Assembly (NCBI RefSeq): GCF_964355755.1 | Contig: NC_092678.1 | Coordinates: 13,638,352 to 13,702,351, forward strand | Reading direction: 5' to 3' | DNA: 64,000 nt | Source: Antedon mediterranea | Taxonomy: Eukaryota; Animalia; Echinodermata | In this document: one piece after another, positions 31,899 through 61,561 of the stretch | Numbering within the stretch: the stretch's first letter is position 1 | Layout of the letters: each line of letters opens with the position of its first letter | Notes under the pieces: model-generated | Told to the model about the DNA's origin: nothing | Seen by the model: only the letters and a program-made list of their open reading frames with translations | Database searches by the model: none | Translations under genes and position numbers: made by a program

Positions 31899-32067
31899 TG
31901 TGACGTTGTTAAACGTATATATTGCAATTATTAGTTGCAAGAAATAAAATGACAGACGACTATAATGAGATCAATGAGAGAGAGTGTAACTTTTATTCAA
32001 AGCATGCTGGGAACTCCTGACTGTGACGTCATACACACATATATTTGATATAGATAGATATGTGACA
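31899..32067 (-). repeat. 3' LTR (169 bp)
   Basis: No mismatch found by eye against 55994-56162. Confidence 0.97.
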
Positions 32068-32080
32068 TCTTCCTTTTTCT
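32068..32080 (-). other. Polypurine tract
   Basis: AGAAAAAGGAAGA on the minus strand abutting the 3' LTR. Confidence 0.9.
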
Positions 32081-32211
32081 TAAACATTAACAACAATCGT
32101 AATCAAAATATCAAACTCTTGATGAAACAATTAAACTATGATAATGTAAACATTTGGGTATAATAAAACATGGATATCTGGCAGAGAAATTATGAACAAT
32201 GAGTCTTTTAA

Positions 32212-33000
32212 TTAGTATTTGTCCATTATGAAGTCATCGAAACGTTTGGGTACACGTCTATTTCGCTTTGGTCTGGTGATTACTACCTCTTCCTTTTGAG
32301 GATCAGGTGTCTTCGGCGGAGTTTCGATAGGAGTTTCATCCACTTCTCCTTCAACATTAATATCTTCTTCATGTGATTGATTTAATTGTCGGCGATTGCG
32401 TCTGTACACTTGTCCGTTTTGCGTAGCGACCATATATGATCTCGGGGTAACATGTTCAGATAACACTTTCGCGGGGACCCATTCTCGGCCTTTGTTGAGA
32501 CGGACTATCTCGTTTCCTTTCAGTGATTGTAGCGTTCGCGTTCCACGATTGTAATATTCCGCCTGTTTGTCTTGTCTAACGATCAACGAATTATGTGCGT
32601 CTGGAATCAGTGTAGGCTTAAGTTGCTCGCGTGCGATAGGAATTCGTGTTCTAAGCCTTCTGTTCATCAGCAACTGTGCTGGAGATTTGCCGATACCTCC
32701 CAATGGCGCATCTCGATAAGCGAGTAAAGCTAAATGAAAGTCTCCGTGAAAGTCATCAGCGGCTTTTCTTAACAATTGCTTGACTGTCTGTATGCACCGT
32801 TCAGCTTGACCATTGCTTTTTGCATAGTTGGGGCTCGATGTGATTAGTTCTATCCCCCATGATTTAGCGAACTTTTTCATTTAAAAACTTGCGAAAGGCA
32901 TTTTGTCGCTTACAAATGTTGCTGGAATGCCATGTCTCGCGAAAATCGTTTTTAGCCTGCCGATTACTTCTTTGGCAGTTTTGTTGCGTAGCGTGACGAT
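32212..33000 (-). pseudogene. Gypsy integrase, distal part of catalytic core and C-terminus
   Basis: IVTLRNKTAKEVIGRLKTIFARHGIPATFVSDKMPFASF*MKKFAKSWG...SSPNYAKSNGQAER...YRRNRR; one in-frame TAA. Confidence 0.95.
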
Positions 33001-33403
33001 CCACAACAACCGATGGATTGTCTCGAATTCCATAAATTCTTCCCGCGTGATTCAGGTTATTTGTAGACGTGTGCATCGGAATGCTCTTGAACTTTCCCCA
33101 TAACAGTGTCTGATGAAATTGATAATTCAATGACGTTTTTGTTCGTACGTTGAAATTTCCTCTCGTCGTAATGTTTGTCGAGCCGGTGGATGCAAACGAC
33201 AAGGCGGTGGATCCTCGACATAACGGCGATTGAAATTCTACCATGTCGTCTTGTAATTTGGTTCCTCGCATGTGTATGGAATGTGTCTTTTCACGTTTGT
33301 CGTACGCGTATCGATGAGCAATGTTCTGCGACGACACCACGTTCACTAGGAAGAAATTGATGGCAGCTGTTTTACACGTAGATTCGACTTGGACGTGCAC
33401 CAT
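33001..33403 (-). pseudogene. Insert gene of unknown function truncated at the left junction
   Basis: ATG at 33403 overlaps the kinase 1 3' end; about 134 codons then run out of frame into integrase sequence. Confidence 0.6.
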
Positions 33404-35004
33404 GAGTTTTCTCGTATAGGCGTGTGTATCGATTTTATTTTGTTTCCTAACATCTCTTTGAAAACCCTATCGGTGACCGTTTGCTGCTTCACTCCAAGAG
33501 GAAGAATGATTGACGAATCCTTTTCAATCTCGACAACTACATGACCGTCTGTCGTTTGTCGATGCGTTGGAAACAATGACACCAAGAATCGAAGTTCTCT
33601 GTCGTTGTAAACTCTAAACTCTACCGACGACGACGATGACGATGATGACGAAGGTTTTCGATACAGATTCAATGCTGATCGAACAAACACGACCGCCAAC
33701 GTGCCGTCTGCGTTGTCAATCAACAGGTTCATATGATCAACTGTTATGTTTTCGCCACTTTCTTGAAACACCACATCTCCAACTAGCGTTTGAAAGTCTC
33801 TGTAAAACAAATGAACGACATTCTGTGCAACCATCTTCACCGATAACATGTCCATAGATTCGATGTTGGTGCGCTGTGATTGAACGTCGTTCTTCAACAC
33901 TAGAAAGGACTTTCTGTTCTCCGGTATTGGATTTAAATTGTCAACAAGCCGATCGATAAAACGTTCACCGAGAACACTTCGATATCGATCCAGTATAGGC
34001 AGTTCATCGGACGGCTGGCATTCCAGAGCCTTACATATGTTCATGTCAGAGTTTACGTACGTGTACCAGTAAGCCGTTTCGAATTTTGTCATACCACCTC
34101 TTATCTTCACAAATTGTCTGCAGAGGCCGACAAGAGTGTGTAATATCTTCGACTTTTGCCCAGTGTCTCCAAGTCTTTTCATGTCTGTGTATTGCACCTC
34201 GTCAAATTGTTGGCATTCGTTGTACATTGTGGCCGTCACCACGGTCATTGCGGCAGAAAACACGTCCGATTCACTATTCAGCAGTTTCACCACTCTGTCT
34301 GTCATCACGTGACTGATATCTCGATACCCTATGGACACTAGTCTGTCTACGCTGCGCACTCCTCCGAATCCAGTGTCAACGTCCATTGTGTAGATCGGCA
34401 TGTCCGATGGTATGTACGCGGAGGCTATCGATTCTTCGTGAACGCATCCAACACCTCCAAATAAGCCGACCTTTTTGCTCGATTCAAATTCGATCATTTT
34501 TCGACGATGTACTTCGGCCGAACCGAAATCAATAAACTTGAATCGACCCTGCCGTCTGTTGTACGTCACATTCCTGATGGTTATGTCGTTATGTGCGACT
34601 CCTATCTTGTCCAGAAAAGCAAGCCCCTCGCCAACATGTCGATAAAGTGTAAGCACGCACGGCAACATTTGCATTGTCATCCGTATTGTAAACAAGTCAA
34701 AACCTTCGTTTGTCATGCGCAGACATTGAGTCACTCCTGAATCGACGACTGCCTGACATATTTGCGGCGTGTACCGTTTCAATCTGTCAAAGTAGTTTGC
34801 GTAAGCTAAAATGAAAGTTTCCTTGTTGAATGTTAAACGTACTCGTGCATCGCTGCTATTCTGATTGCCACAATGTAATTTTTCAACTAAACCAGACTCT
34901 ATGGAATGGACAACGCCAAACGAACCTCGGCTGTTCACAGTCACCAACGGATCGATTGTATTATCCAATTTGCCAAACGATAAAATCTTCTTTTGACCGT
35001 GCAT
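33346..35004 (-). CDS. Atypical protein kinase 1 with C-terminal extra domain
   Basis: RGSFGVV loop, NKE helix-C glutamate, HNDITIRNV catalytic loop, IDFGSAE, SDVFS, LNPIPENR. First ATG at 35004. Intronless. Confidence 0.9.
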   Translation of the reverse strand: MHGQKKILSFGKLDNTIDPLVTVNSRGSFGVVHSIESGLVEKLHCGNQNSSDARVRLTFNKETFILAYANYFDRLKRYTPQICQAVVDSGVTQCLRMTNEGFDLFTIRMTMQMLPCVLTLYRHVGEGLAFLDKIGVAHNDITIRNVTYNRRQGRFKFIDFGSAEVHRRKMIEFESSKKVGLFGGVGCVHEESIASAYIPSDMPIYTMDVDTGFGGVRSVDRLVSIGYRDISHVMTDRVVKLLNSESDVFSAAMTVVTATMYNECQQFDEVQYTDMKRLGDTGQKSKILHTLVGLCRQFVKIRGGMTKFETAYWYTYVNSDMNICKALECQPSDELPILDRYRSVLGERFIDRLVDNLNPIPENRKSFLVLKNDVQSQRTNIESMDMLSVKMVAQNVVHLFYRDFQTLVGDVVFQESGENITVDHMNLLIDNADGTLAVVFVRSALNLYRKPSSSSSSSSSVEFRVYNDRELRFLVSLFPTHRQTTDGHVVVEIEKDSSIILPLGVKQQTVTDRVFKEMLGNKIKSIHTPIRENSWCTSKSNLRVKQLPSISS

Positions 35005-35030
35005 TGCCGTCGTGTGCGTCAATCGAATGA

Positions 35031-36272
35031 TTAAGAGAGAATGGCTTTCTGACGTTTATCTATTTTACCTCGACAAATCGGACACAAAAGCAAACTGTTT
35101 GAACACGACCAGCAGGCGACCAAATGCGAACATGGAATGAAAAGAACACAAACGTCAGCGTCCATGCATATCTTACATGTTTTTTTTTCGCGTAAATCGC
35201 GCACAACAGATTGCACATCTTCTTCTTCCTCCACTTCTTCCTCTTCTACCACTGTTGGTTTATCGTTCACTGGAATCGTGACAGCGTTCAGAAGCTCAAG
35301 GGTAGACGTAAAGTTTCCACCGGTTCTCTTCACGTGATCGTTTACAGTAGTCGATACATGTTGCATGTCAAAACCCATTTCTAAAACTTTCACAACGATT
35401 TCAGAGCGCATTGCAATATCAAACGGACTTTTTGACGAAATAAGAGCCGTCTCGATGAAAGGAAAACCATTTTCGATTCTCAACCAATTGCAGAACGGAA
35501 ACCACTTTGCATGCTCGATCCAAGGATTATCGTCTAATTGCCAGTCTTTCAGTCCACCGCCGCAATGGAAACACATTGCCTGGTCCCGATTGATTGCAAA
35601 GAATCCGGCCTCAGCTATTCCGTTCGGCGTATGATCGGTAGCCCATACTGTAGTAAACGTCATTTTTCGAACATTCAAAAGAGCGTACTGTGGATGCATT
35701 GCCCGTTGCCTATTGTTGGTGGTGGTGGTGGTGGTGGTGGGGGTCGCCACGGTGGCCGCGGTGGATAACATGAACTTGCACAACGGGAAATGTTTTCTAT
35801 GCTTTTCGTCGACATTCACTCCTCTTTTCCATCGCTCAAGTAAACCGTTGCAAGAGAAGCATTCGACTACGTCACAGCATGACCTGTAATAAAATCCAGA
35901 CTTTGCTAAAGTGCACGCCGATACGATGTGTCCAAATGGCCAGTTTTTAAAAGTCGACAATCTGACCATATGCGAGTTTGAGTCGACCAAATGTGTTTTA
36001 CTGCCGATTAAAGGACTACTGTTACCACATGACATCAGTTTGCAAAACGGGAAGTGTTTCTTGTGCTCTGTATCGGCATCTGCTCCGGCGTTCCATCTCG
36101 AAAGTTTACCGTGACAACGGTAACATTCTACCCGGTCTTCTTGCCCCGTATAAAAGAAGCCCGACATTGCTAACGATGTAGGCGATATCACGTGTCCCGC
36201 AATCCAAAACTCATACGTGGCCAATCGTCTTTCATAACATTCCATCGCGCCTGTATGCACTATTTTATTCAT
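35031..36272 (-). CDS. iap: Inhibitor of apoptosis protein, 3 BIR + UBA + RING
   Basis: Three CxxC-x16-H-x6-C BIR motifs with GFFY/GFYY/GFF, LEMGF UBA, C-terminal CKICMD...CSH...CWSC...CPICR RING. Intronless. Confidence 0.97.
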   Translation of the reverse strand: MNKIVHTGAMECYERRLATYEFWIAGHVISPTSLAMSGFFYTGQEDRVECYRCHGKLSRWNAGADADTEHKKHFPFCKLMSCGNSSPLIGSKTHLVDSNSHMVRLSTFKNWPFGHIVSACTLAKSGFYYRSCCDVVECFSCNGLLERWKRGVNVDEKHRKHFPLCKFMLSTAATVATPTTTTTTTNNRQRAMHPQYALLNVRKMTFTTVWATDHTPNGIAEAGFFAINRDQAMCFHCGGGLKDWQLDDNPWIEHAKWFPFCNWLRIENGFPFIETALISSKSPFDIAMRSEIVVKVLEMGFDMQHVSTTVNDHVKRTGGNFTSTLELLNAVTIPVNDKPTVVEEEEVEEEEDVQSVVRDLREKKTCKICMDADVCVLFIPCSHLVACWSCSNSLLLCPICRGKIDKRQKAILS

Positions 36273-36371
36273 TTCTGTCTGTGTGCGCGAGCGGGTGTGT
36301 GTGTGTGTGTGTGTGTGTGGCCCGAAGAGTATATATTATAGCAATTTGTAAATTCAGATTCACCACACACG
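36273..36371. promoter_or_regulatory. Putative bidirectional promoter between iap and the 120-aa gene
   Basis: 99-bp spacer between divergent ATGs with TATATATTATA (~36330) and a (GT)n tract. Confidence 0.45.
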
Positions 36372-36734
36372 ATGGAGGATTCGATCGCAAAAGAAATGAA
36401 CACTGTTGTGGAAAATCTGAAATCGATATATTTTAAACAATTCTCTGATATTTTGAATACGATGATTAGAAACGGATGCAACGGATGTATTCACGAGCAT
36501 CCTTCTCAGATCGAACATGATCTATGTTTGATGGCTCCGGATAGAGAGAATATAGAACGTTTCTTTGACAACATTGTTATCGATAAAGAGGTACTGTTCA
36601 TAGAATGGTGTCATCAAAATGCTGATTTTCTGGAAAGTTGCTCTAATGTCAACGCCTGGTTCGAAGTTCTATTGTCGGAAATAAAAGATAGCAACAATTT
36701 AATCGATCAAATATACCGTTATAGATTAATTTAA
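36372..36734 (+). CDS. 120-aa protein with a CxxC-x3-HPSQ-x2-H-x2-C putative zinc motif
   Basis: Clean ATG-to-stop ORF downstream of a TATA-like element; motif CNGCIHEHPSQIEHDLC. Confidence 0.75.
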   Translation: MEDSIAKEMNTVVENLKSIYFKQFSDILNTMIRNGCNGCIHEHPSQIEHDLCLMAPDRENIERFFDNIVIDKEVLFIEWCHQNADFLESCSNVNAWFEVLLSEIKDSNNLIDQIYRYRLI

Positions 36735-36816
36735 TTTCTCTTGCGCCGGTATTTTCTTCGGTAGATTTAATATGAATTTTTACTCGACATACAACTTGTA
36801 ATATAGAAACAACTGA

Positions 36817-38279
36817 ATGTATTCTCCTTCATTCATAAGCAAGTCAAACACGAGTGTAGGTGCAGAATTTTTTCATCCAATGATCTGGTGAAAACGACCG
36901 CAGAGAAGGTTATGCCTAAGTCAGATGATTTGTTACAGGACGAAAACGCTTCGTTGAAGAAAAGTGTAAAATGTATACACCTTCTAGAACAGTTGTTGAA
37001 AGACCGTGATAAATCGTTGAACCACTTAGAGAAGACGGTAAAAAACTATAAATTATGTATTGAACATCTACAATGGCGCTTACACAAACACAACTTGGAC
37101 TCATCAGTTGATTTGAAAGAACATGAAATATTCGAGCCTGGTCACGATAAACAGATTTTAATAAGCTTGTTGAATGACGCTATACGATATAAAAGATTGC
37201 TTGACGAGAAGTTTAGCTCCGAAGAGGTAAGACGAAACTAAGTGTGAGAATATTTGTCATGAATTCGTTAAAATTATCATAGTGGTGTGAGTGTGTGATT
37301 TATTATTATTATTTTTTAATGTTCAGGTTGCCGAAGCAAAAGAAACCATTTCTGTTCTTGAGAAAGAAGTTAGTAAGCTGTGTGTACAGTTGAAACGGAA
37401 AGAGAACGAACTCATTGTTGTTTTAACTAAAATGAGATCCTCATACGACGAGAAAGATGTAGTAATTAGTAAGTTAAAATGTCAGCTACGAGATTATTTT
37501 ACACAGCGTAACAATGATGACGCTGTTCGTGACACGTTGAGCTCCGAAATAAGAACATTAAAATCAAATACTGAACAGTTTGTTGAAGAGAAAAAGAAGA
37601 TAACAAATGAACTAAAAGCATATGCGCAAAGAGAGAAGGTATGGGTACAGGAAAGAAATATGTGTTTTGCTCACGCTAGAATTTTACATTCAGAATCAAA
37701 GTTCGAAGATGAATGTAAAACGTTGCAAGAACAGGTTCGAAATTTAAGTCGTGAAAATACAGATTTATGTAGGCAATTAAAAGAGATAATTGTTATGAAC
37801 ACTCGCTGGCAAAAGTACTCTGAACAAAGAGAAGCACACGTTGTGCAGTTGAAACAACAATTGAAAGTATCTGAAAACAAAGTTTTCAAGAATCATTGCC
37901 TTATTTCTGAACTTGAGCGGATGGAAAAAGAGAAACGAAAAAAAGAAATCGATACTGCTGTTCTTAGTTTGGCAACAGATTTGGGAAAGACATGCGAATT
38001 GAATTGACTAAACACAATAACAGACTTGATGAAATAATTGGTCAATATCAAGAGACGTATGCGTCACTTCAACAATCTTACTTACCTTCTTCTAATACTC
38101 CCGATATTCTTGAATTAGTTTGTGATGATGATGATTAAGCAGCTGTAGAAGACGGTAATTTGGATGAATTATTACAATGTCCTCGTTTTCTGAAAGAGTT
38201 TAATATCATAGAACATGTTCAGTTAGTTGATCATTTAGATACATGTGATGTTGATGAATACAATAATTCTATCTTATAA
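36817..38279 (+). pseudogene. TNIP2/ABIN-2 (CEP55-related)-like coiled-coil gene with one intron, disrupted
   Basis: Phase-0 intron 37227-37326 (GTAAGA...TTCAG) joins the ORFs at 36888 and 37291. EABR-like MNTRWQKYSEQREAHVVQLKQQL; C-terminal LLQCPRFLKEF...LVDHLDTC finger. Frameshifts near 36870 and 37985; stop at 38136-38138. Start position inferred. Confidence 0.75.
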
Positions 38280-38446
38280 AATCTGTGCTGTTTTTGTTTT
38301 TGTTTTTTTGTTTCTTGCTAACAATCATTAATCAATAATAAAAGAAATTAACAGAATCTATAGTACGATCTATTCAATAACAATAAAGTGCATTTGGTAA
38401 TCTAGACGGGTATATATGCTTTTAATATAAATGATGGCGTGTTTTT

Positions 38447-39420
38447 CTCTAACACGATGTTCTCAATAAAGGAATAATAAATTGATAATAAAGTGTGTAT
38501 TTTGTAAACTAAACAGTATACAGAATTAAAAGTGTATTCGAAGTTATACTAAACGTAGAAGACGGCGTGTTTGTTCTCGATAAAGGGATAATGAATTAAA
38601 CGGCGTATAGTACTAATATTGTAGTCCTGATAACGAAGAAAATAAGTATTGCGCCCTCTATTGACAGATAATATGACTATTATTATTATATCGTGACAGA
38701 CAATATACTGTTTTTTTTAAACGGGTATAATATTCTTTTATTATAGAAGACGGCGTGATGTTCTGTAACGCGATGTTGTCGATAAAGGGATAATGAATTG
38801 ATAAAGGGATAATGAATTGATAATATTGAGTGAGAAGTATAAGGAAAGATCTAGAAGGTTATGAACATATTTTGTATAACGGGATGTATGTTCTCTCTTG
38901 TGTGTGTAAACTGAATGCTTAAACATTGATGCACACTGTCATTGAGGTCGAAGTAATCAAAGGCTGTTTTCTAATTGTTGATAATCTATTGAATTCGAAA
39001 GTAATCTATTGAATTCGGAAGTGATTTGTTGAAATCGGGTCATATCTTAATTGCCTTGAAAGAAATATAAAGCAAGTTACATATTTTTGGAAAGCTTAGA
39101 GAGTATAAACGTGTACTGCCCTTGGTGAAGAAAGTCTTGAAGATGAGTTTTTCATAAATTTTTAATGTCCCAATGTATTATGTACATCGAACGAATACCC
39201 ATTGAAAAGTTAAACAATCAAATGCTTTGACTTCTTACCGAAGTAAAAAAAAGATTTTAATTGATTTACTCATCATACAACATGCGACGAATGCATGACA
39301 TGTTATGCCTCTTCAGTTCTCTTTTTGTTGTAAACTGAATGTTTAAATATTGACGCGCGCTGTCATTGGCGTCGATGTAAAGCTTTTATTTTTCTAAAAC
39401 ATTATCGACCGAACGCTATG
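38447..39420. repeat. Diverged, rearranged copy of the insert's internal repeat
   Basis: 38447-38960 matches ~44710-45250; 38959-39095 matches ~44470-44610; another partial copy near 39325-39380. Confidence 0.8.
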
Positions 39421-39981
39421 CGTACTATCACATGTTGAATGCTTTAACAATAAATGGGCACTGTCCTTGAGAGGGAGGTCTTGAATATGAGTTTTTCATA
39501 ACACAAAGTTTATTCGAGTTTATAATAACGGACTTTCTATTTAGAAACAAATGAGAGAAGATTTGTTAATTGCGTAATACTTTTATTGATTTTTACTTTA
39601 CCTATATAAAATACAATGTAAACAAAACTAATGCCCATGATTCAGTGACAACAAAGTATTGCACCCTATATCTATAATTTATAAAATCCAATTCAATCAA
39701 TTCACGTTTTATTTCAGAACAAAGTCCATATCATAACACACAACAATATTCAATAAATTAATGTAAGTAAGTAAAAAAAAATATATAAAACAAGTCGCAC
39801 ATAAAAAATGCCGTCGGAAAACCGTCGGTTTTAAATTATTAGTGAAAAAACATTTTAATGGCTATACTGTTACGTAAAAAGTATACATGAAATTATGTAT
39901 ACAGAAGTTCAATCCATTTTCTGTGCAATTACTACTACTACTACTACTACTACTAATTTATTTTAAAAAAAATAAAAAAAA

Positions 39982-41622
39982 TCATCTACATGGTCGTTTC
40001 GCAGATGAAACTTCTTCTTCATCATCGGCCACCACCACCGTATTGTATTCGGATCTGAATTTTTCGACGCTTACTATGAGCGGTACGTCGTCGTTGACTT
40101 TCACATACATTCGGCGTATTCCATCGTGTAATTTTAATTTAGCGTTGGTGCCGAATGAATTCGACAAATGTTTAATGTCCTCGTCGCTGAACACGCAGAA
40201 TTCTACTGTAGTTGCAATATATTGACTCAGTCTGAGAGCCGACATGAGAAACGACATGATCAGTTTCCGATCGTTTGACATGATGTGCATATGTTCCACC
40301 ACCACAACGTTTTGATTCGGGCTTTCGTTGCCAAATTTGATGTCTCCAATCGAAATGTCATGTTCGTGTACTAGATACACCAATCTATCTTCAACGCGTT
40401 TCAACGAAAACTGTTTACCGCCAAACAATACAGTTGAGTCGTGTTGTTTTGAAGCCGCCTTTTCTAGTTTCGATACACTTCGACGTTCCGGTACAGGGTT
40501 CAAACATTCTTTTAAAGCGTCCGTAAACTCGACTCCCAAGAACGGACTGAATCTATCGATGTATGAATTGTATTTCTTGCTGCTGGAACAATGCGACAGT
40601 GAAAATGCGTCGGTCAGTGATCTATCCGGATTCACGTGCGTGTACCAAAACTGGAGATCACGTTCGTTCATCGGACCACGTAGTTCTACCGAATGTCTAC
40701 ACACCTTAATCAAATTGTTGTACGCAAATTTGTCCTTTTTTAAATCGCAATAGTCGCTTTGCGTCTCAAACTTATTCCGATTGTTGTCATCATAAAACAT
40801 TAAAGCCACACTCATCGAGGCGCTGTAAACGTCCGAATTTCGACGCAACATCTTCACTCGTCTGTCTGACATCACATGACTTATGTCCCTGAAAGGTATC
40901 CTTGTCAGTTTCTCCTCACTCCTGACGCACGAATATTTTGGTTCGGTGTCGGAAAAGCGTAGTCGACTTCCCGGTGGCAAGTACTTTGACGCCATGGAAC
41001 CGGTTCGAACGATACCCAAACACCGATGGCCATGTCTCTCTTTCACAGAAACGCCAAACGTGCTTGCACCGTGCTTTGTAAACTCGGCAGAACCAAAGTC
41101 TATTATACGAAATCGATTATCTAATCGACTATACGCCACGTTCTCGATTGTTATGTCGCTGTGAACCACACCTGCGTTTTCGAGAAACGTCAACGCTTTG
41201 CAAACATGTAACGAAAGCGTTTTCACGCAAGGCAGAAGCTTGTAACAATAGCGTAGCCTGTACAGATTACATCCTTCGTTTCTCATCGTGATTGATATTG
41301 CGATGTTACGCCGATAAGAAACTTCGAGCAGACGAGGCGTACACATTCGAGCCGCGTCCGTTTGTTTTAAGTGTGCAAGAACCAAAACTTCCTTGTTTCC
41401 CGACAAGTTCACGTCTTCATGCTCGAGCGTAGACGTGCGGCTGGCCGTGAAATCATACAATGTCTTTATCACAACGTGCACGTTTTCTTTAGCTGTCTTC
41501 ACTTCGCCATGTTTCTCACTTTCTTGAATTCGAATAGCGCCGTACTTGCCGTTTACAGCCGGTAAACTTTCATACTTTCTCGTTGTTATTTGCGTCTTGT
41601 ACAGGGGTAGAAATTCAGCCAT
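39982..41622 (-). CDS. Atypical protein kinase 2, paralogue of kinase 1
   Basis: NGKYGAI, VVIK, NKE, HSDITIENV, IDFGSAE, FRDISHVMSDRRVK, SDVYS, LNPVPERR. First ATG at 41622. Intronless. Confidence 0.9.
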   Translation of the reverse strand: MAEFLPLYKTQITTRKYESLPAVNGKYGAIRIQESEKHGEVKTAKENVHVVIKTLYDFTASRTSTLEHEDVNLSGNKEVLVLAHLKQTDAARMCTPRLLEVSYRRNIAISITMRNEGCNLYRLRYCYKLLPCVKTLSLHVCKALTFLENAGVVHSDITIENVAYSRLDNRFRIIDFGSAEFTKHGASTFGVSVKERHGHRCLGIVRTGSMASKYLPPGSRLRFSDTEPKYSCVRSEEKLTRIPFRDISHVMSDRRVKMLRRNSDVYSASMSVALMFYDDNNRNKFETQSDYCDLKKDKFAYNNLIKVCRHSVELRGPMNERDLQFWYTHVNPDRSLTDAFSLSHCSSSKKYNSYIDRFSPFLGVEFTDALKECLNPVPERRSVSKLEKAASKQHDSTVLFGGKQFSLKRVEDRLVYLVHEHDISIGDIKFGNESPNQNVVVVEHMHIMSNDRKLIMSFLMSALRLSQYIATTVEFCVFSDEDIKHLSNSFGTNAKLKLHDGIRRMYVKVNDDVPLIVSVEKFRSEYNTVVVADDEEEVSSAKRPCR

Positions 41623-41634
41623 AGCAGCAGCACA

Positions 41635-42133
41635 ATGTCGGCGATTTACAGATGGCAAGACACAAATTCAAAGAAATTGTACGCGGCACTGATCGTTGAA
41701 CGTAAATGGATAATACTGGAACGTTTCTCCCCTAGTGATGAATGGAGTCCACCGTTGCCTACACTCGACGTTACACCGGACACATTGGAAATCGAAATGA
41801 TAACAAAGCCAAGCTGGAACGGTGTTGTGTTCAGGGACTATAATCCACATCCGTTGCGTGAGCGAGGAGTCGCAATGAGACCGACGCTAAATTTAGCTTC
41901 GAATCTGTCGATGGCGCAGATATCCCAATGGCCAACGCATGTCGGTAAGTTCACCGATACCCATATGACGTACGAGAAGAGAACTGATGTTCTTGTGATT
42001 AACGGCTGTAGGGTAAACAGATCATATCCGACAATTTCGAGAATCATCAATCATCATCTTCACCACCACCACCCCAATGTGAAAACTAAAAACAAAAGTC
42101 GACTCATCACGCATATTACACCACCACCACCAT

Positions 42134-42166
<33 letters not shown>

Positions 42167-45744: not shown

Positions 45745-46086
45745 GGATGAGGATACTAAAGACTGGATGGGGATAGACAAAGGTTCTGACGGCGAGGATA
45801 GTTATTGAAAACGAAGAAGAATGTGTAAGAATTTGTATAGGCCTAATCATGATCTAGAGTAGAAGTGAGTTATGTTAACAGATTGTGTGTGCTCAAAATA
45901 ATCCATTAATCAAAATAATTATGCATTTTTAATTGTTGATTTTATATATTAAGATGATAATAAAAATGAAAGAAATTAAAGTGTATTCTTTATTCGTATT
46001 CATTGTTTAAGTGTGTAAAATTTCATGTAGATCCAGTAATAATAACTAATGGTATCCAATGCGAATGTGTTGTGGTTATTGAATAG

Positions 46087-47413
46087 AACCAATGTAATGG
46101 TCCACTGAACTTCAAAGGCTGCTTTCTAATTGTTGATAATCTATTGAATTCGGAAGTAATCTATTGAATTCGGAGGTGATTTGTTGAAATCGGATCATAT
46201 CTAATTGCCTTGAAAGAAATATAAAGCAAGTTACATATTTTTTTGGAAAGTTTAAAGAATGGAGATTAATATAATAATAATAATAATAATAAAATTTTAA
46301 TTTCAACACAAGGCTCCTTTTGTGGTGACACTAGCCATATTTTCTTTTATTATCCCTAACACGATGTTCTCTAAAAAAAAAAATTGACCATAACGTGTCA
46401 CTTTGTAAACTAAACGGTATACATTCTTTTAGTTATAGTTGTTCACTAACACGATTTATTCGATAATGAACCCTAATTAAAAAAAACAAACAAAAGTGTA
46501 TTCGAAGTTATACTAAACGGTATATTAATAGAAGACAAAGTATTTGTTATCGATGAAGGGATAATGAAATTGATATTATTATAATTTAAACGGCGTGTTT
46601 AGTATTTTGTAGTCCTGATAACGAATACAATAAGTAGTTCGCCCTCTATTGACAAATAATATACCTGCGTTATATGCCGCGTGACAGACAATAATTATAG
46701 GCCTACTGTGTTTCTAAATGGGTATATTTTAGTTTTATTATAGAAGCTCTGTAACGCGATGTTGTCGATAAAGAGATAATGAATTGATAAAAGGATAATG
46801 AATTGATGATTGAGTGAGAAGTATAAGGAATGATCTAGAAGGTTATGAACATAATATTGTATAAGGCGATGTATGTTCTCTCTTGTGTGTAAACTGAATG
46901 CTTAAACATTGACGCACACTGTCATTGAGGTCGAAGTAATCATTGGATACGGATGCGTGTTACTGCTATATCAGGATCAGGACTGCATTATTCAAACACA
47001 TAAAACACTGAGAGTAATAAAGAGAATCTATGCTTGATTGTTTTACACTCGAAAAATTTATTAGTATTTTGTAATAAAATAAAGGTAATTCAAATTGTTA
47101 CATGATGCATTAATAAATTAATTAATGTTCATAAACGTCCAAATACTAGTTTCCTAGAATTTGTATTAAAATAATGTCTGCTATCTGTCTATGTAGCAGA
47201 TATATGTTCATGTTTCGTTCTGCTCTGCATACGGGATGTGTGTGTGTGTCTTCTACTGACTGGCTGACGTTCACGATTTAACGTTACCGCTCCAAGAATT
47301 CAATACTACAATACATTGTTTGTTGTAATATTGATGTTGCTATACCTTTCAATGTTCATAAATGTCAATATGCTGGTGCTTCCTATTCCATCTATCTTTG
47401 GTACAGTTCTTGA
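46087..47413. repeat. ~1.3-kb direct repeat, copy 2
   Basis: Highly similar to 44445-45744, with an extra ~50 bp near 46460-46510. Confidence 0.95.
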
Positions 47414-48022
47414 CCATTCATTGATTGTTTCAGAATTTATTACCAGCATCGAACCGTGCTCCATTTTTATGTTCACAGGTTTAATGTTTTTGTTGGTGCG
47501 GTGTTCGAATCTACAGATTCTAGTAGGTCCCAGAGACATAATGCATACAGGACTTATTTTGCTCCTTTGTACATCATTAAGATAGCATTCCGCTGAATCC
47601 TCCGCTCTTGTCAAAGTTACCATATTGTAAAAATGACCAGTCGCAATGTGTATCCATTCACGCATTTCGAGTAGAAACTTTGGCCAGTAACACAGAGGAC
47701 TTCTTCTCGCTGTGTCGTCGATGTTTGTGTGAACTCCTATTTGGAATGACAACTCCAAATCACCGTACGGTGCACATCTAATGTGATCTACTTCAGTGAT
47801 CACATCACGTAACTTATATAGAGAATCGAATAAATGTGTTTTCCTACATTGTTTTAAAATAGTGTCTGCTATCAGTCTATGTAGCAGATGTACACGAACG
47901 CATTTCATGTTATCTTCCGGTCTGCATACGGTGTGTGAATGAAAGCCGAAATAAAACTCATCTTCTGACTGGCTGACGTTCATGATTACTTTATTGCTAC
48001 AAGAATTCACTACAACTTCCAA
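47306..48022 (-). CDS. AlkB (ALKBH2/3)-like fold protein lacking catalytic residues
   Basis: WPKFLLEMREWI..ATGHFYN..SPVCIMSLGPTR..RFEH..MEHGSMLVI..EWSRTVPK..ILTF follows the ALKBH2/3 pattern. Start uncertain (TTG at 48022, first ATG at 47983). Confidence 0.8.
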   Translation of the reverse strand: MEVVVNSCSNKVIMNVSQSEDEFYFGFHSHTVCRPEDNMKCVRVHLLHRLIADTILKQCRKTHLFDSLYKLRDVITEVDHIRCAPYGDLELSFQIGVHTNIDDTARRSPLCYWPKFLLEMREWIHIATGHFYNMVTLTRAEDSAECYLNDVQRSKISPVCIMSLGPTRICRFEHRTNKNIKPVNIKMEHGSMLVINSETINEWSRTVPKIDGIGSTSILTFMNIERYSNINITTNNVL

Positions 48023-48505
48023 TTAAAGTTTGAAACTAAAACTCCATACTGGTCGATTTTTATACTTTGCGATGAAGGTTAACTACACGCGTTGTCAACA
48101 AACAACGAAACCGATGAATGATTGTCGATTATACTGATGTGTATGTGTGGTGCGCGCTTTAAAATTCGTATTGAATATATCGTGCCTCCTCTTCCTCCTA
48201 CCCGGCTTAATTTGCGTATGGTTTTCGAATGATGATCATGAACACACAAACGGGTGTAATTCCATCGTTAGTTACTTTAGTGTTACAATAAAACCGTCTC
48301 GGCAACATGATGGAAATAAGCGTCACTGTCGGTAAATGTATACACCGGTCCCAAAGAGTCAGGGTCAATTACTTTTTTTTAAGAAATATGTTTAATGTGT
48401 ATTATTATTATTATAGTTTAATATAAGCGTATTTTATAAATTTAATCTCCATTGATTCTATCATCATATTTTAAAATCAAAATGCTATGTTTTAAATTCT
48501 ATTTG

Positions 48506-48551
<46 letters not shown>

Positions 48552-49085
48552 TCCCTCTCCTTCTCTCCTTATTAATTTAGATTCGACTATGTAGAAACGG
48601 AATTTAATTTCCAAATTAAAACACTGCATTGTAACAATATTATAATCGGTCTGCTTTTCTTTTATCGATGATGACAATAGAAATAAGGGTAGGGCGTGTG
48701 TATGTATCACCGCCGGTCAGTGTACACACCAGGTCACAAAGCTTTAAAGAAATATTTTTAATTGTTATCCCGAATATGTGTGATAGAGTAATTCGTTTCG
48801 ATATATAATCATTTTGGTATACTAACAATTTGAACAAGCTTCCTCTACGCGCCCAGTCGTAAATCCAATCCTAGATTTTATATTTACCGATATTGCGACC
48901 CTATATAGTTTTTGATAAATTACTAATACTGTTATGGTATCGATAGATTGTAAGCCAGCCGAATGGTTAGTTCTTGAGTCTCGTAATTTAACGCTGTAGC
49001 CTTAGGCTAGGGTTCGAGAATTGATTTGATACATATATATATATATATTTTTTTTAAATATTTGTTTTACTCACCATCTTCTTTA

Positions 49086-50392
49086 TTGACAAATAATCTA
49101 CAACTACTAAGTGGTCATTTCCTCCAAAGTTGAAAATGTCTGCCCCAACTTTATAAAAGGGTATTTCAGGTATTTCGTGAGGTATCATTGGTTCACGTTG
49201 ATTTTTCCTTTTGTACTTCGCACATATCGTACATCTTGATACCATGTCATGAATAGCATTGGTGATACCGGGCCATTACAACAACTCTCTGGCTCTGGCC
49301 TTGGATTTCTCTATTCCTAAATGAACATCATGAATGCGGTTAAGCATGAATTCTCGTTTGCTTTCTGGTACTATCAATTTCTGCCCAATAAACATTAGTC
49401 CCTCGTGTTCATAAATTTCGTCACGCATCGGCCAAAATTGTCTTATCTTTACGCTGACTGACTGACGTCGCTCAGGCCAGCCAATATAGCACTGTTTCGA
49501 TAGTTCCTTTAGTGTCTCGTCCTCGTTAGTCGCTTGTTGTATTTCCGTTATTCTAGCTTTACTCATACTCAACAGCTCATGTACGGCATGTATACGATAT
49601 TGTAGAATTTCAGGATCATTTGTGACAGTTTCCATCGGAACCGCTCTGCTCAGTGCGTCACGTCTGCGATATACATTTCACGACCTGGAACATATGTGAC
49701 ATTTATATCATATTTTAATAGTCGTAGCATCATCTGCTGTAGTCTGGGACTCGCCTTGTGAATTGGTTTCTTTGTAATTGACTCAAGAGGTTTGTGATCA
49801 GACTGGATCGTAACTGAACGTCCGTAGACATAGTTGTTAAACCTTTCAAGTGAAAAACAAATAGCTAGCATTTCTTTTTCTATCTGAGAATAGTTCATTT
49901 CGGCTGACGTTAGTGATCGCGAACTATAGCGTATCGGGTGACCATCTTGCATTAAAACACTTCCTAGTCCAAAAGATGATGCGTCACATTGGATTACTAC
50001 TTCTTTATTCGGATCAAAGTACTTAAGTACTGGCTCTGAGCTTAACAAACTCTGCAAATGTTTTAGCGATTGGTCGTGGCGTTCATCCCAAGACCGCGCT
50101 ACTTCCTTCTTTAATAACTCTCTCATAGGAGCGCTGATGGTAGACATATTCGGAATAAATGGCGACAGATAGTTGATCATTCCCATTAAACGTCTCAGGT
50201 CAGACTTACAAGAAGGTGTAGGCATATCATAAATTGCTTTTACTTTAGAATTATCAGGCTTAACACCATCTCTACTAATTATGTGACCTAAGTATGTCAA
50301 CTCATGTTCTTTAAGCTTAATCTTATTTCTATTAAATTTTACATTTTCATCTTTAGCACGCTCCATGACTTTGGCTATCACATTATCATGAT
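49086..50392 (-). pseudogene. Gypsy pol: RT C-terminus, RNase H, linker, integrase HHCC and first catalytic Asp
   Basis: YLGH, QCDASSFGLG, NYSQIEKEMLA, SDHKPL, HDVHLG..CTIC, VGADIF, VVVDYLS; with frameshifts and stops. Confidence 0.95.
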
Positions 50393-53290
50393 TAGTAGAG
50401 CAGTTAATGACATGAGCTGTGCATTTTATTACCAAAGCATGAAACTTGGCACAAAGTTTCTTTGATGTATATAGATTCAAAATATCTGGGGGTGCCAAGT
50501 GTCCAACGTCCGGTATGGCGGCCATCTTGATTTCAAAATGGCCACCATAAAAACAAAAAAATGTTCATATCTTGGCAACTATACACATTAGAGAATTAAT
50601 TTTTGTCTTAAATTGTTCACAAACTATATATTTCTCTTTGCTCTAATGAAAAGTTTCGTCCAAAAATGACCGGAAATGACGTTTCTTACAGTTTGACCTT
50701 TGACCTCGTATTTGTATATCTCTGTAACTACTGGTCATTTTCAATCGATTTTGGTGTCATTTTGTTCAGAATAAATACATTTATATTTGTAGTAATGAAA
50801 CATTTTCACATAAAATGACCGAAAATACAATTTATGACCTTTGACATTAATTTATTGATTTTTAATTATGTGAATATACTGTAGGTGGTTTTTGTTGGTC
50901 TAAAGTGCACCTAATTTTGAACTTACCCCTGATAAGCGTAATTATATTAAATAATTAATGGACTTAAATTGTATATAGTACATAAAATTGGTAAACATTG
51001 TGCTGGCACCTTCTGATTCGCTAAAAGTTTTAATAGTTTGACAGAGGAAATAACATACATGTTATTGAATACCGTAAAACCTCGAAAAGGTGATAGTATG
51101 AGCTTCTTTTCGAGAAAGACTGTATTTGATTGTCAAATGAATAGTATGATGATTGTGTTTATATAAATATATTATTAATGACCTTACAAAGAACACTGTC
51201 TATTTCAACAATTAAGCCACAGTTATTCTACAATTTATTGTTTTCCAAGTGGTAGGCCTATTTTGATTGCATCTTATTTTTGTATGCTTCCTCGTTTAAT
51301 ATGGTCCTAACCCTCCTTCTTTGTCTGTGGATAGTCTTATGCACCCTTCTTTGTCTGTGGATGGTTTTACACCCCTTTCTTTGTCTGTGGACGGTCTTAT
51401 ACCCCTTTCTTTGTCTTTGGATGGTCTTATACCCCCTTCTGTGTCTGTTGATGGTATTACACCTCTTTCTTTGTCTGTTGATGGTATTAAACCCCTTTCT
51501 TTGTGTGTGGATGGTCTTACACCCCTTCTTTGTCTGTGGGTGGCCTTACATCCCCTTCTTTGTCTGTGGATGGTCCGATGGTCCTATACCTCCATTTTTG
51601 TCTGTGGATGGTCTTACACCCCTTCTTTGTCTGTAAGTGGTCCTATACCCCTTTCTTTGTCAGTGGTGGATGGTCTTACACCCCCTTCTTTGTCTGTGGA
51701 CGGTTCTACACCCCCTTCTTTGTCTGTGGATGGTCTTACACCTCTTTCTTTTTCTGTGGACGGTCTTATACCCCCTTCTATGCCTGTGGGTGATCTTACA
51801 CCGCTTTCTTTGTCCATTGATGGTATTACACCCCTTTTTTGTATGTGGATGGTCTTATACACCCCTTTCTTTGTGTATGGATGGTCTTGCACTCCTTTAA
51901 TTTGTCTGTGGATGGTCTTACACCCCCTTCTTTGTCTGTGGATGGTCTTATACCCCCTTCTTTTGTCTGTGGATGGTCTTATATCCCCTTCTTTGTCTGT
52001 GGATGGTCTTCTCCCTTTCTTTGTCTGTGGATGGTCCTACACCCCTTATTTGTCTGTGGATGGTCTTATACCCTCTTCTTTGTCTGTAAGTGGTCCTATA
52101 CCCCTTTCTTTTTCAGTGGATGGTCTTGCACCCCCTTCTTTGTCTGTGGACGGTCCTACGCCCCCTTCTTTGTCTGTGGATGGTCATATACCCCTTTTTT
52201 TGTCAGTGGATGGTCTTACATCCCCTTCTTTGTCTGTGGATGGTATTAAACCCCTTTCTTTGTATGTGGATGGTCTTACAACCCCTTCTTTGTCTGTGGA
52301 TGGTCTTACACCCCCTTCTTTGTCTGGACCCACTACTTTGATTGATGAAATTAGACATTGTTTCTTGTATGATTAGGAAACCAAGACCTTTAAAGTGAAA
52401 GTTCACAGGTGGATGCCTAGGTCTTGTACAGAACAGTATATTGTAGGTCCATGTCACTAATTTGAGGATTACTTGAATAATTATATTTAGATGTCTTTTA
52501 CGAATTGATTTAGTTCGGATTTTGCTAAAAAATCAATGACTAGAGAAAATCAAGGAAAAGGATTCAGATGAAAGGTTTACAGCAAAGGCCTATTACCATA
52601 AAAATGGAGTAAATTTTTTTAGATGCAACGAAAAAACGATTGACACATCACAGTTTAGCAAACATGTCGGCATAGATGAGCTCAGTGATCTGTCATACTT
52701 TATGCCTATCCTATCACATCAAAAGTTAAAAATTCAGAATAATAATTCCGTGTCATTTATTTCGGTAAAAAAATTAGGTGCATTTATACCAATTAAACCA
52801 CATACAGTATGTTCACATAATTATATATGTCAAAGGTTATAAATTGTATTTCCAGTAATTTTATGTGAAAATGTTTCATTACTACAAATATAAATGTCTC
52901 TATTCTGAACAAAATGACACCAAAATCGATTGAAAATTATCAGTAGTTACTGAGATATACAGATAAGAGGTCAAAGGTCAAACTGGAAGAAACGTCATTT
53001 CCGGTCATTTTTGGACGAAACTTTTCATTAGAGCAAATAGAAATATGTGGTTTGTGAACAATTTAACACCAGAATCAAGTCTCTACTGTTTATAGTTGCC
53101 AAGATATGAACACTTTTTGTTTTTATGGTGGCCATTTTGAAATCAAGATGGCCGCCATACCGGACGTTGGACACTTGGCACCCCCAGATATTTTGAATCT
53201 ATATACATCAAAGAAACTTTGTGGAAAGTTTCATGCTTTGGTAATAAAGTGCACAACTTGGCTATTTTTATGGCGTTAACTGCTCTACTA
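50393..53290. mobile_element. Academ-like non-autonomous element inserted in the Gypsy RT
   Basis: TAGTAGAGCAGTTAA...TTAACTGCTCTACTA, ~500-bp inverted arms, 3-bp TSD GAT (50390-50392, 53291-53293). Removal restores DDEKHHDNVIAKV in frame. Confidence 0.93.
51300..52330. repeat. ~30-bp minisatellite, over 30 copies
   Basis: Unit CCCCCTTCTTTGTCTGTGGATGGTCTTACA. Confidence 0.97.
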
Positions 53291-54617
53291 GATGCTTTTC
53301 ATCGTCATCGGTAGCAATTATCATGTCATCAGAAATTACAAATACATTATCAATACCTCCAAATATTTGTTCGTTTCCCTTTTGAACAACCTCACTGGCA
53401 CTATATAGACCAAAGGGAAATCTTTTAAATGAATACCTCCCAAATGGTGTGTTGAAGGTGCACAACTCAGTGCTGTGCTCCGTTAATGGTATTTGCCAGT
53501 ATGCATCTTTCATATCTATGTGCGTGAACAATTTACGCCCTGACAATTTACTTATTACATCCTCTGTTGTAGGAATCATGTGATGCTCTCTTTTAATTTC
53601 CCTGTTCAAATCTTTAGGGTCGAGGCATAGCCTCAGAGAACCGTCCTTCTTTTCTACAACTACTAAACTACTCACCCAGTCAGTGGGCTGATTAGTGCGT
53701 GAGATTACGCCTTGGCGTTCCATCTCGTCTAATTTGTTTCTTAATTTATCATGTAAACTTATTGGTACTCTCCGGGGTGGATGCACGACCGGTACGGCGC
53801 CCTCTTTAATCTTAATGTTGTATGGTTCGCCCATGCAACCCAGTCCCTCAAAATTCTTTGAGTATTTACTCATTAAATCATCCATTTTGATTGAATCTAC
53901 ATTGCGGTTAATGATGCCTAATGCTGTGCTCGAACTTAGTCCAAGAATAGGTGGACTATCTACCTCAGTAATGAAAAATTCATGAGCACTTGTTTGCATG
54001 CCATCGTTCCGTGAAATCTTCAAACTCACCACACCACAGTGTGGGATTACAGTACTGTAACTGTACAACTTGGCTTTACTCTCATTGACTTTCGTCTTAA
54101 TATCTAATTTCTTAAATAAGCTCTTAGGAATGCAGTTTACATTCGCTCCTGTATCTACCTTGACATTGATTAAATGTGTGTTGTTAACCTTTATCTTATA
54201 CAACCACATGTCATTAGTGTTTCTCCCAACACTATCAATATAAAAACTACCAAATGTTAAAGACATATCGTCTTCTTCTACAAGGTATTTACTATCAGAT
54301 GTACATTCATTAGCATTGATACTGTCAATTTTCTTATTAAACTTAGATGGATTAAAATTATAATTACGCTTACCACTACTACCAACACCATTCTGTCTGC
54401 CTGGACACAATGTCAATCTACTGAAGTGTCCCAAGCGATTACATTTTCTACAGCGTTCGTTCCAGGCTGGGCATTGCCTTGGTGGATGTTTACGCATACA
54501 ATTCGCGTGAACTTCGCGTTCGCTATGGTTACGTGTACGCGGCTTGTCGCTGTACTGTTGTTTGTGCTTCATGCTGCCTGCGTGTGTGTGGCTTTTCTTT
54601 ACTTCATTTACACTAGC
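53291..54617 (-). pseudogene. Gypsy gag C-terminus (CCHC), protease and RT N-terminal part
   Basis: CRKCNRLGHFSR, KVDTGANVN, LRLCLDP, DAYWQ, FNTPFGRY, PFGL, ISDD. Confidence 0.95.
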
Positions 54618-54760
54618 TTTATTTTTATTTATTTATTTTTTATTTATTAAGGTATAAAAACATCAAATTCCAACCAGCAGCAAGAGCTGAAAAGGTTGGA
54701 TTACAATCAACTGAGAAATAAAATACATCAAAGAAGATCAAAACTAAACATTAAACTTAA
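54618..54760 (-). mobile_element. Short insertion in gag, probably a 5'-truncated LINE 3' end
   Basis: Non-gag sequence ending in an (AAAT)n/A-rich tail on the minus strand; gag frame resumes ASVNEVKKS. Boundaries approximate. Confidence 0.55.
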
Positions 54761-54870
54761 AGGATTATCAGACATTATCAGTGTCAATTCTCGCTTAGAA
54801 CTCTCATAATTACGCATACGTTTGACTACAGTCTCTAAAGATGCGTTACCATCATCTCCCATAACCTTAA

Positions 54871-55496
54871 AGACCCCTTCCCTGCAATTTTGGACGTTTT
54901 TTGGAAAATAATACATATATATCACTTTAAAAACATTAAACCATGTCTTTCCTTGTCTTAAATGTACGTTTTATGGTAAATTATGATAAAAACTGAGAAA
55001 CAATGCACTACCTAAGTAGCTCGCGGCGATCGACCTCTCGTGGACGGTCTCAGGCCTAGCCTAGCTAGGCTTAGTTTTGTAGGCCTAGCTGGTAAACATC
55101 GGTAACGTACGAACATCGTACGCTAGCTATATACCTAGCCTGACGTTGTATAGTTGCTGCATTAATTATCTTTCTATTTTTGCCAGACTCCGTTGATACA
55201 AATTGGGGGAAACCCGGTATTTTCGCTGAAAAGTTAGGAGTCTTCCATTTGTTTTGGCTTCACGATCGATCGAAAAGTGGGCGAATTACAGGTGAAAAAC
55301 AACAATATCAATCCGCGCGCAATGCATTTTGGGATTTATAGCGGGCCGCTATAATTATTAAAATCGATTTATTTTTCACATTTTTAACCGTTTAAAGACG
55401 AAAAAAGTTATCGCAATAGGACCATATAGTATTATTTTTACATTAAATATAGTTTGTGATCTTAAATTAGATCTAAAAAACGTAGGGAATGGGGCT
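54871..55496 (-). mobile_element. Kolobok-like MITE inserted in gag
   Basis: TTAA TSD (54867-54870, 55497-55500), imperfect TIRs AGACCCCTTCCCTGC / GTAGGGAATGGGGCT. Removal restores ATMKLKVMGDDG. Confidence 0.9.
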
Positions 55497-55950
55497 TTAA
55501 GTTTCATTGTTGCGTCTGAGATCCCGAAAAATAATTTATCTCTTAAAATTGCGTTTACGTCCTGAAATTTGCAGTCGTCGGCCATTGTTCTCAAATCGTT
55601 CATGTATTCATCTAAACCTTGCCCTTCTCTGGTCGTTGATACGACCAAAATTTGGCTCGCATGGCCATGACTGGATCTCTCTTTTTACAGTAGTTCTCAA
55701 ACTTGGTTAATACATTGTCATAATTATCTTTTGACTCACCCTCAACATATGTAAAATTGTTGAAAATTTCAAGCCCTCGTTTTTCGAGCACCGTGAGCAG
55801 GATCGCTATTTTCGTTTTATCGCCCTTGCCGTTTGAATCGGTGGCTGTCATGAATAAATCGAAGCGCTGCTTCCATCGTTTCCACTGCGTGTAAATGCTT
55901 GGCCCATCAAAATCAAAACTTTCAGGGGTCTTAAACCTGAATGATTCCAT
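55497..55950 (-). pseudogene. Gypsy gag N-terminal part
   Basis: MESFRFKTPESFDF..WKRWKQRF..LTKFENYC, then a frameshift to EGQGLDEYMNDLRTMADDCKF..LRDKLFFGI. Confidence 0.9.
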
Positions 55951-55978
55951 TGCAAATTATTTTATACAATAAAATGCA

Positions 55979-55993
55979 CCACTTCTGACACCA
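55979..55993 (-). other. Primer binding site, tRNA-Leu type
   Basis: TGGTGTCAGAAGTGG directly after the 5' LTR, complementary to the 3' end of tRNA-Leu(CAA). Confidence 0.88.
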
Positions 55994-56162
55994 TGTGACG
56001 TTGTTAAACGTATATATTGCAATTATTAGTTGCAAGAAATAAAATGACAGACGACTATAATGAGATCAATGAGAGAGAGTGTAACTTTTATTCAAAGCAT
56101 GCTGGGAACTCCTGACTGTGACGTCATACACACATATATTTGATATAGATAGATATGTGACA
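55994..56162 (-). repeat. 5' LTR (169 bp)
   Basis: Matches 31899-32067. Confidence 0.97.
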
Positions 56163-60596: not shown

Positions 60597-60708
60597 AGGA
60601 TATGGATGGCCTGATAGTGGGTAGTGTATACTGTATTTTACTTGTCTTTAGTTAGGCCGCTAGTGAGTAGGTATCATAGAAAGTCTGTCTATAGGGCTAG
60701 GCATCTAA

Positions 60709-61542: not shown

Positions 61543-61561
61543 TAAGCCAAATGGGTCGAAT

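Follow-up and report, generated by a model that had tools for sequence, protein, structure and literature searches.

A dead Mag-like Ty3/Gypsy element of Antedon mediterranea holding a 16-kb fragment of a multi-copy, gene-dense element, most likely assembled in place

The Gypsy backbone and its lesions

A 64,000-nucleotide stretch of contig NC_092678.1 of the crinoid Antedon mediterranea (the window, numbered from its first letter) harbours, between two identical long terminal repeats (LTRs), a dead Ty3/Gypsy retrotransposon with a 16-kb block of gene-dense foreign DNA, here called the cargo, lodged in its integrase (Table 1). The element is oriented on the minus strand, as are its primer-binding site (PBS) and polypurine tract (PPT), while sequence comparison of the LTR pair gives 0 differences in 169 positions and both outer sides are flanked by the target-site duplication (TSD) GAAAC. 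The paired TG..CA LTRs, TSD, PBS and PPT by which a Ty3/Gypsy element is recognized are consequently all present, and an initial annotation of the window, which had described mismatch-free LTRs, a perfect TSD and a defective composite that keeps LTRs, PBS and PPT, was accurate on these points. Pfam identifies protease (PR), reverse transcriptase (RT), RNase H (RH) and the integrase (IN) zinc finger in the Gypsy order PR-RT-RH-IN, and the best matches of the element RT in the PDB are Ty3 RT. The segment 32212..32999, which has no Pfam match on its own, we take to be the C-terminal part of the integrase partly on account of its motifs.

Without its insertions the backbone measures about 4.5 kb, and the present LTR-to-LTR span is 24.3 kb. 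Judged by structural features (size, LTR length, PBS type and TSD) rather than by RT phylogeny, it is likely a Mag-like Ty3/Gypsy element. With Mag elements it shares the size of about 4.5 kb, the 169-bp LTRs, the 5-bp TSD, a PBS which we take to be of the tRNA-Leu type (TGGTGTCAGAAGTGG) and the order gag-PR-RT-RH-IN without env, but the copy in the window differs in being dead and inflated to 24.3 kb. The mosquito Mag rows tabulated in PMC3286476 are mostly 4.1-6.3 kb long with LTRs of 139-304 bp, a Leu or Ser PBS and mostly a 5-bp TSD.

The several stops and frameshifts plus four insertions reported earlier for gag/pol resolve into two in-frame stops (49276-49278 and ~32881-32883), two frameshifts (~55615 in gag and a 5-bp insertion at 49656 in pol) and four insertions, namely a Kolobok-like miniature inverted-repeat transposable element (MITE), a ~155-bp A-tailed piece, an Academ-like element and the cargo. 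A frameshift considered near 32880 in the integrase was rejected, as it is actually the in-frame stop. Intact cis elements thereby surround a dead coding core, as in large retrotransposon derivatives (LARDs). The 5-bp insertion at 49656 duplicates neighbouring bases, and a fifth DNA transposon, since lost, could have left it as an excision footprint. The Academ-like insert holds an internal 30-bp tandem array and occurs at very high copy in contigs, the Kolobok-like MITE recurs in part at 4008-4548 (14 mismatches in 537), and both are presumably named correctly from their terminal signatures; the A-tailed piece is probably the 5'-truncated end of a long or short interspersed element (LINE or SINE).

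Table 1. Features of the composite element and its immediate borders (window coordinates; TIR, terminal inverted repeat; ORF, open reading frame; IAP, inhibitor of apoptosis protein)
Feature	Position	Strand	Remarks
Left TSD, GAAAC, 5 bp	31894..31898	.	
3' LTR, 169 bp, TG..CA	31899..32067	-	0/169 mismatches to the other LTR
PPT	32068..32080	-	
Integrase, C-terminal part	32212..32999	-	in-frame stop ~32881-32883; motifs and contig continuity with the zinc-finger half
Cargo block, 16,092 bp, inside integrase	33000..49091	.	no TSD, no TIRs
Small ORF, severed at left junction	33000..33403	-	weak PHROG match, phrog_6179, E 1e-4
Divergent protein kinase 1, 552 amino acids	33349..35004	-	Pfam Pkinase E 5e-5, below cut-off
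IAP, three BIR, UBA-like and RING	35031..36272	-	Pfam BIR E 2e-47 (three stretches), RING E 4e-12
120-amino-acid orphan ORF	36372..36734	+	Cys/His motif
Coiled-coil gene, EABR-like motif	36912..38007	+	predicted intron 37227-37326; Pfam EABR E 3e-4, below cut-off
AT-rich spacer	38141..39980	.	75-94% similar to parts of the 44441-47413 repeats
Divergent protein kinase 2, 546 amino acids	39982..41622	-	Pfam Pkinase E 5e-7
~830-codon gene	41635..44106	+	nonsense stop 43474-43476
1.3-kb direct duplication (44441-45744 / 46082-47413)	44441..47413	.	AlkB 3' end and spacer
AlkB-like gene, two exons	46940..47983	-	intron 47347-46985; identical to XP_071959859.1 (P0004), 212 + 14 amino acids
~1-kb higher-copy repeat unit, severed at cargo right end	48075..49091	.	
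RT C-terminal part, RNase H, integrase zinc finger	49092..50392	-	Pfam RT_RNaseH E 1e-30, Integrase_H2C2
Academ-like non-autonomous DNA transposon, inside RT	50393..53290	.	TAG..CTA ends, ~500-bp TIRs, 3-bp TSD
gag 3' end (CCHC), protease, RT 5' part	53291..54620	-	single open frame
~155-bp insertion, (AATAA)n A-rich tail	~54620..54775	-	borders approximate
Kolobok-like MITE in gag	54871..55496	.	TTAA TSD on both sides
gag 5' part	55501..55950	-	frameshift near 55615
PBS, TGGTGTCAGAAGTGG	55979..55993	-	
5' LTR, 169 bp	55994..56162	-	
Right TSD, GAAAC	56163..56167	.	

The cargo: genes, repeats and borders

The gene content of the cargo combines recognizable regulators with proteins of hardly any kin. 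The IAP has cIAP/NAIP matches in the PDB. The two divergent kinases, 35% identical to each other, share a C-terminal domain, and kinase 2 had no relative among 4363 candidates in a search limited to near lengths. In the model of kinase 2 (overall predicted local distance difference test, pLDDT, 34) the tail at residues ~402-510 is the sole usable part (pLDDT ~60-72); it aligns with GNAT folds (VIA Z 8.9, root-mean-square deviation 2.9, 101 aligned residues; BFVD GNAT matches at E ~2e-4), so that a GNAT acetyltransferase-like fold is predicted for this domain with moderate confidence. The ~830-codon gene has one clear homolog among 1.84 billion representatives (P0001; 51% over 545 amino acids and 40% over the downstream 209-amino-acid frame), which reads through the position of the internal stop and so identifies the stop as a nonsense mutation; P0002, a repetitive zinc-finger protein (E 3e-4), was dismissed as a chance match. 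A 613-amino-acid piece of this protein (AlphaFold, pLDDT 35) had no BFVD match at E <= 0.001 and no score >0.78 in the ESM atlas, where integrase/NDC10 rows are mere leads. The 120-amino-acid ORF had no homolog among two candidates of near length and nothing in the ESM atlas, and the EABR-like gene no usable PDB sequence match. Pfam matches to CXCL16, DUF4618 and fn3 lay below cut-off and were rejected, and an Rfam search returned 0 matches. The AlkB-like protein (47348-47983) has YLND where HxD would be expected, in both RefSeq variants alike; as the iron-binding histidines seem to be lacking, it is possibly catalytically dead. With respect to transcription, run X9, of which an RNA origin is only a guess, covers the cargo in patches only, and no RNA run was listed as containing 32201-42200.

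Decay of the cargo genes, which had been claimed initially, is real but modest: there are a nonsense stop, an ORF severed at the junction and partial AlkB duplicates, but the reading frames of the IAP and of both kinases are open. The statement that the only cargo intron runs antisense to the LTR transcript did not survive. The predicted intron 37227-37326, with splice sites in frame, is indeed antisense, but the intron 47347-46985 (GT..AG), taken from the RefSeq gene model, is sense to the LTR transcript, and the RefSeq protein matches 212/212 and 14/14 residues across it.

In composition the cargo stands apart, with a coding density of 79% over 33000-44106 with overlapping ORFs, a GC content of 45% in the main gene stretches as compared with 33-37% in the flanks, and an observed/expected CpG ratio (CpG o/e) of 1.3-1.45 versus 0.84-0.88, although the Gypsy integrase likewise reaches 1.29. 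The arms of the 1.3-kb duplication are 98% identical (27 mismatches in 1276, 8 gaps), and on the transcript strand between the LTRs 29 AATAAA hexamers occur, four of them within the A-tailed insertion in gag. The AT-rich spacers (38141-39980, 44441-47413 and 48075-49091) are repetitive and reach a greater contig depth than the genes, which brings to mind the homologous-repeat regions found in large DNA viruses.

The cargo has no ends of its own. As its left end cuts an ORF, for which tblastn gave no phage match, and its right end lies within the ~1-kb repeat (depth 7k-15k versus ~1.3k in X1), it is a fragment of something larger; in an X2 contig the last letters of the cargo sit directly before position 48075. 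TIRs with a TSD and TC...CTRR Helitron ends at an AT target were looked for at the cargo ends and not found. Cut-and-paste or Helitron insertion of the cargo as a unit was rejected, as there is no TSD, 18 bp of the target are lost and the ends fall inside an ORF and a repeat.

Copies elsewhere and the divergence clock

Copies of the components were sought in Logan contigs of public runs (nine listed, five compared, X1 and X2 being one sample), which drop rare variants; contig figures refer to the matches listed, and the comparison reached 51100 on the right, with 44401-47419 and the gag junctions outside. The window flank around the Gypsy element is a high-copy repeat of which the left and right sides are joined directly, as an empty site, in contigs of four of four runs. 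In all three runs concerned (X1, X2, X5) the pol contigs pass at 49092 without interruption into the integrase sequence that resumes at 32999, from which it follows that about 18 bp of integrase were replaced by the cargo and that no TSD was formed. The RT is likewise uninterrupted across the Academ site in X1 and X2 (a 3057-bp contig in X2), and both the pol stop at 49276-49278 and the 5-bp insertion at 49656 are missing from the majority contigs. At the other side of the cargo, contigs of X1 and X5 begin matching exactly at 33000, preceded by 195 and 414 extra letters from outside the window; the X1 contig has a depth of 1114, close to that of the whole gene block. In two organisms the predominant cargo contigs depart from the window sequence at 33000 and enter something other than integrase. 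No contig bridging any window junction was among the matches listed, which is not taken to mean that none exists.

The AlkB-like gene has five RefSeq accessions in A. mediterranea (XP_071944662, XP_071948746, XP_071948751, XP_071959868 and XP_071959859), four of which represent one identical protein on three contigs, while XP_071959859.1 alone is the window variant; none of the X1 and X2 depth includes the window-private 3-bp insertion in AlkB. Among the accession numbers, …48746 and …48751 lie close together, as do …59859 and …59868, which hints at copies adjacent to one another and perhaps at a local donor, though their order need not be positional. X2 depths are 27-31 for long contigs whose flanks are unique, 123-127 for the AlkB region and 195 for pol, ratios that suggest roughly 4-5 cargo loci and 6-7 pol loci, depth being no true copy number; the five RefSeq entries agree with the former. 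X5 and X8 are about 2-3% divergent from the window in the long pieces listed, X8 being shallow and possibly trace DNA, and contigs of both skip 37022-38005, the EABR-like gene, so that the gene content of the parent element differs between organisms.

Relative to the majority contigs the window differs at 63 of 8976 cargo positions (0.70%; nine long X1 pieces among those listed) and at 8 of 1234 and 7 of 1301 pol positions (0.54-0.65%). Among 39 listed differences that were tallied, the change in the window is GC-to-AT in 25 and AT-to-GC in 8, as expected for neutral decay. Interior divergence of this order predicts 1.8-2.4 mismatches between the LTRs, with a probability of 0.09-0.16 of observing 0/169, which itself permits up to 0.89% per lineage at 95%. 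Because of this probability, the identical LTRs need no re-copying to be explained; the comparison of interior with LTR divergence that the initial annotation had proposed thus came out compatible with in-place decay, and LTRs of 169 bp can remain identical while the interior drifts by 0.5-0.7%.

Assembly of the composite

Most likely, the composite has stayed put since its assembly, and the cargo is most likely a DNA-level, in-place insertion into a dead Gypsy element (probability about 0.8). A Mag-like element of about 4.5 kb inserted into a high-copy repeat, as shown by the TSD and the empty site in four of four runs, and would then have decayed in place in a transposon-dense region while gaining three small insertions, in a presumed order in which 16 kb of another, gene-dense element present in several copies was then pasted into the integrase, probably via repair of a DNA break. 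Such patching is suggested by the blunt, TSD-less cargo ends and the small deletion, and may have proceeded by end-joining or by template copying from another copy or free DNA. The identity of the LTRs would then be a roughly 1-in-10 chance for 169 bp or the product of LTR gene conversion. In-place decay, favoured already by the initial annotation as the simpler explanation, is supported by the uninterrupted Gypsy and longer cargo contigs and by the compatible divergence.

Alternatively, a 24-kb transcript of the decayed composite could have served for a single new integration in trans, which would have reset the LTRs and produced the perfect TSD. PBS, PPT and LTRs are intact, uninterrupted family members are possible helpers, and 0/169 against 0.54-0.70% in the interior gives a likelihood ratio of about 6-11, by which LTR identity leans mildly toward re-copying while being compatible with in-place decay. 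Such an event would nevertheless require a donor with the same private variants, which only one of the five RefSeq AlkB entries carries, and the 1.3-kb repeat, the ~500-bp TIR hairpin, the 30-bp array, the sense intron and the 29 polyadenylation hexamers, which a round through RNA should remove or block, have survived. A retroviral vector lost a 701-bp repeat more than 90% of the time when the spacing was >1.5 kb (PMC3187697), and captured DNA framed by LTRs rarely exceeds 10 kb in the account of PMC6431247. With assumed priors of 1-10% and a repeat retention of 0.1-0.3 the posterior is 0.01-0.28, and a late re-copy is judged unlikely. The further-reaching form of what the initial annotation had proposed, an amplified giant non-autonomous LTR family spreading virus-like genes, comparable to LARDs or Anakin, draws on the multi-copy cargo (~4-5 single-locus equivalents, five RefSeq accessions) at a depth near that of Gypsy pol. 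The same internal structure at several loci, which such a family should display, was however not found in the majority contigs: the dominant cargo contigs exit at 33000 into non-integrase sequence in two organisms, the dominant pol is uninterrupted, both paths bypass the junctions, and the window variants are confined to that single RefSeq entry. Of the two observations that were to speak against re-copying, compatible divergence was obtained directly, and apparent rarity of the junctions indirectly through majority contigs; an amplified family is regarded as very improbable. LARDs, Anakin (Pao-chuvirus glycoprotein hybrids) and env-capturing LTR elements share with the composite foreign, possibly viral DNA between intact LTRs with PBS and PPT kept (PMC6431247, PMC7642597), but they are amplified hybrids with one gene or less than ~10 kb of cargo, whereas the window shows a minor-form junction and a 16-kb multigenic cargo that cuts the integrase; as the hybrid is not the amplified form, the composite does not qualify as such a family.

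A switch of the RT onto cargo RNA or cDNA during reverse transcription, with a single insertion of the chimera and later decay, would account for the missing TSD at the cargo, for the 18 bp lost and for the fact that cargo (0.70%) and pol (0.54-0.65%) have diverged to a similar degree. On the other hand, it needs a 16-kb RNA across convergent and divergent genes with introns in both directions and many polyadenylation signals, it does not ease the LTR clock, and PMC3187697 puts the frequency of non-homologous recombination at least 1000-fold below that of homologous recombination, so that this route is held to be quite unlikely.

Several observations weigh against in-place assembly. Zero LTR mismatches are still a 1-in-6 to 1-in-11 outcome, with the probability dropping to 0.034 if the X9 integrase piece (5/486) is used, and divergence from majority contigs is no clean clock because it includes inherited differences of the source lineage. 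Four insertions and four lesions within ~0.6% divergence make a dense history, and the rarity of the junctions rests on majority contigs, in which rare variants are dropped. Unspliced genomic RNA can keep introns, and the 1.3-kb duplication could postdate any copying, which weakens the argument from repeat retention. With respect to size, planarian Burro LTR elements have internal regions of up to 25 kb (PMC6431247).

The whole window is a dense transposon nest. A nearly intact LINE on the minus strand at 15397-19560 (ORF1 with PHD and GDSL esterase, a 989-amino-acid endonuclease-RT ORF, CpG o/e 0.47) is followed at 20434-25768 by a second, fragmented LINE on the plus strand (endonuclease, RT, zf-RVT). 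Further long-TIR elements lie at 8292-10519, 10848-14160, 26412-27274 and 59386-62442, those at 8-14 kb resembling the Academ-like insert and holding 141-150-bp tandem arrays, and Kolobok-like ends (AGCCCC beside TTAA/TAA) occur at 4008-4548, the partial copy of the gag MITE, and at 60706-61545, a related element.

The parent element of the cargo

The chances are about even that the parent of the cargo is an endogenous large DNA virus of feather stars from a lineage so far undescribed, occurring in several near-identical copies and in more than one related organism and carrying anti-apoptotic and signalling genes, twin kinase-GNAT fusions and a large near-orphan protein. A multi-copy, gene-dense block with an IAP and host-like regulators is what such a virus would leave, although it is not specific to viruses. 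The viral character assumed initially for the cargo agrees with the IAP and the gene-dense, multi-copy layout, but the 16-kb fragment revealed neither a capsid gene nor one for a polymerase, a terminase or packaging, the model of the 830-amino-acid protein being unusable (pLDDT 35), so that a viral origin is suggested by layout and gene set only. That the retrotransposon re-copied the 16-kb block of such a virus within a 24-kb RNA is a bolder and unlikely extension.

A non-viral parent, either a gene-capturing giant DNA transposon of Maverick, Helitron or CACTA type or a host segmental duplication, is a serious though tentative contender, to which the lack of a viral hallmark gene in the fragment, the modelled introns in two genes and the outcome of three viral-contig and two metagenome scans, with 0 related cargo loci confirmed, are favourable. 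The coding density, overlapping ORFs, GC content, CpG o/e and near-orphan proteins of the cargo are less readily reconciled with such an origin, and endogenous nimaviruses typically have IAPs as well as eukaryote-like genes with introns (PMC10871703). As to a Maverick/Polinton in particular, Pfam detected no pPolB, RVE integrase, capsid or ATPase in the cargo fragment, outside which the termini of the parent lie.

Endogenous nimaviruses (Majanivirus and others; PMC10871703) resemble the parent in being multi-copy large DNA elements of marine invertebrates with BIR/IAP and further eukaryote-like genes, of which some have introns, but count 22-477 copies as compared with ~4-5, and neither a nimaviral core gene nor an integrase was detected in the fragment, which comes from an echinoderm host. 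Teratorn, a piggyBac-herpesvirus fusion, likewise joins a transposon to a virus-like gene block; as characterized in PMC10175614, however, it is a stable, amplified 180-kb DNA-transposon fusion, whereas the composite is likely a single-locus accident in a retroelement. Incomplete coverage of the literature on endogenous large DNA viruses in echinoderms yielded no crinoid case, and nothing was found on DNA-virus cargo carried by LTR elements, endogenous viruses of Antedon or IAP/kinase cargo of Mavericks in a survey outside which most subscription papers lay.

As such, the nested insertion is ordinary. The more interesting object is the parent element, which is multi-copy, young and structurally variable, with ~97-98% identity between organisms, and the proteins of which have hardly any kin in a set of 1.8 billion representatives. 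The five RefSeq gene entries allow it to be located directly, and should it be viral, an echinoderm would be the host of an endogenous large DNA virus.

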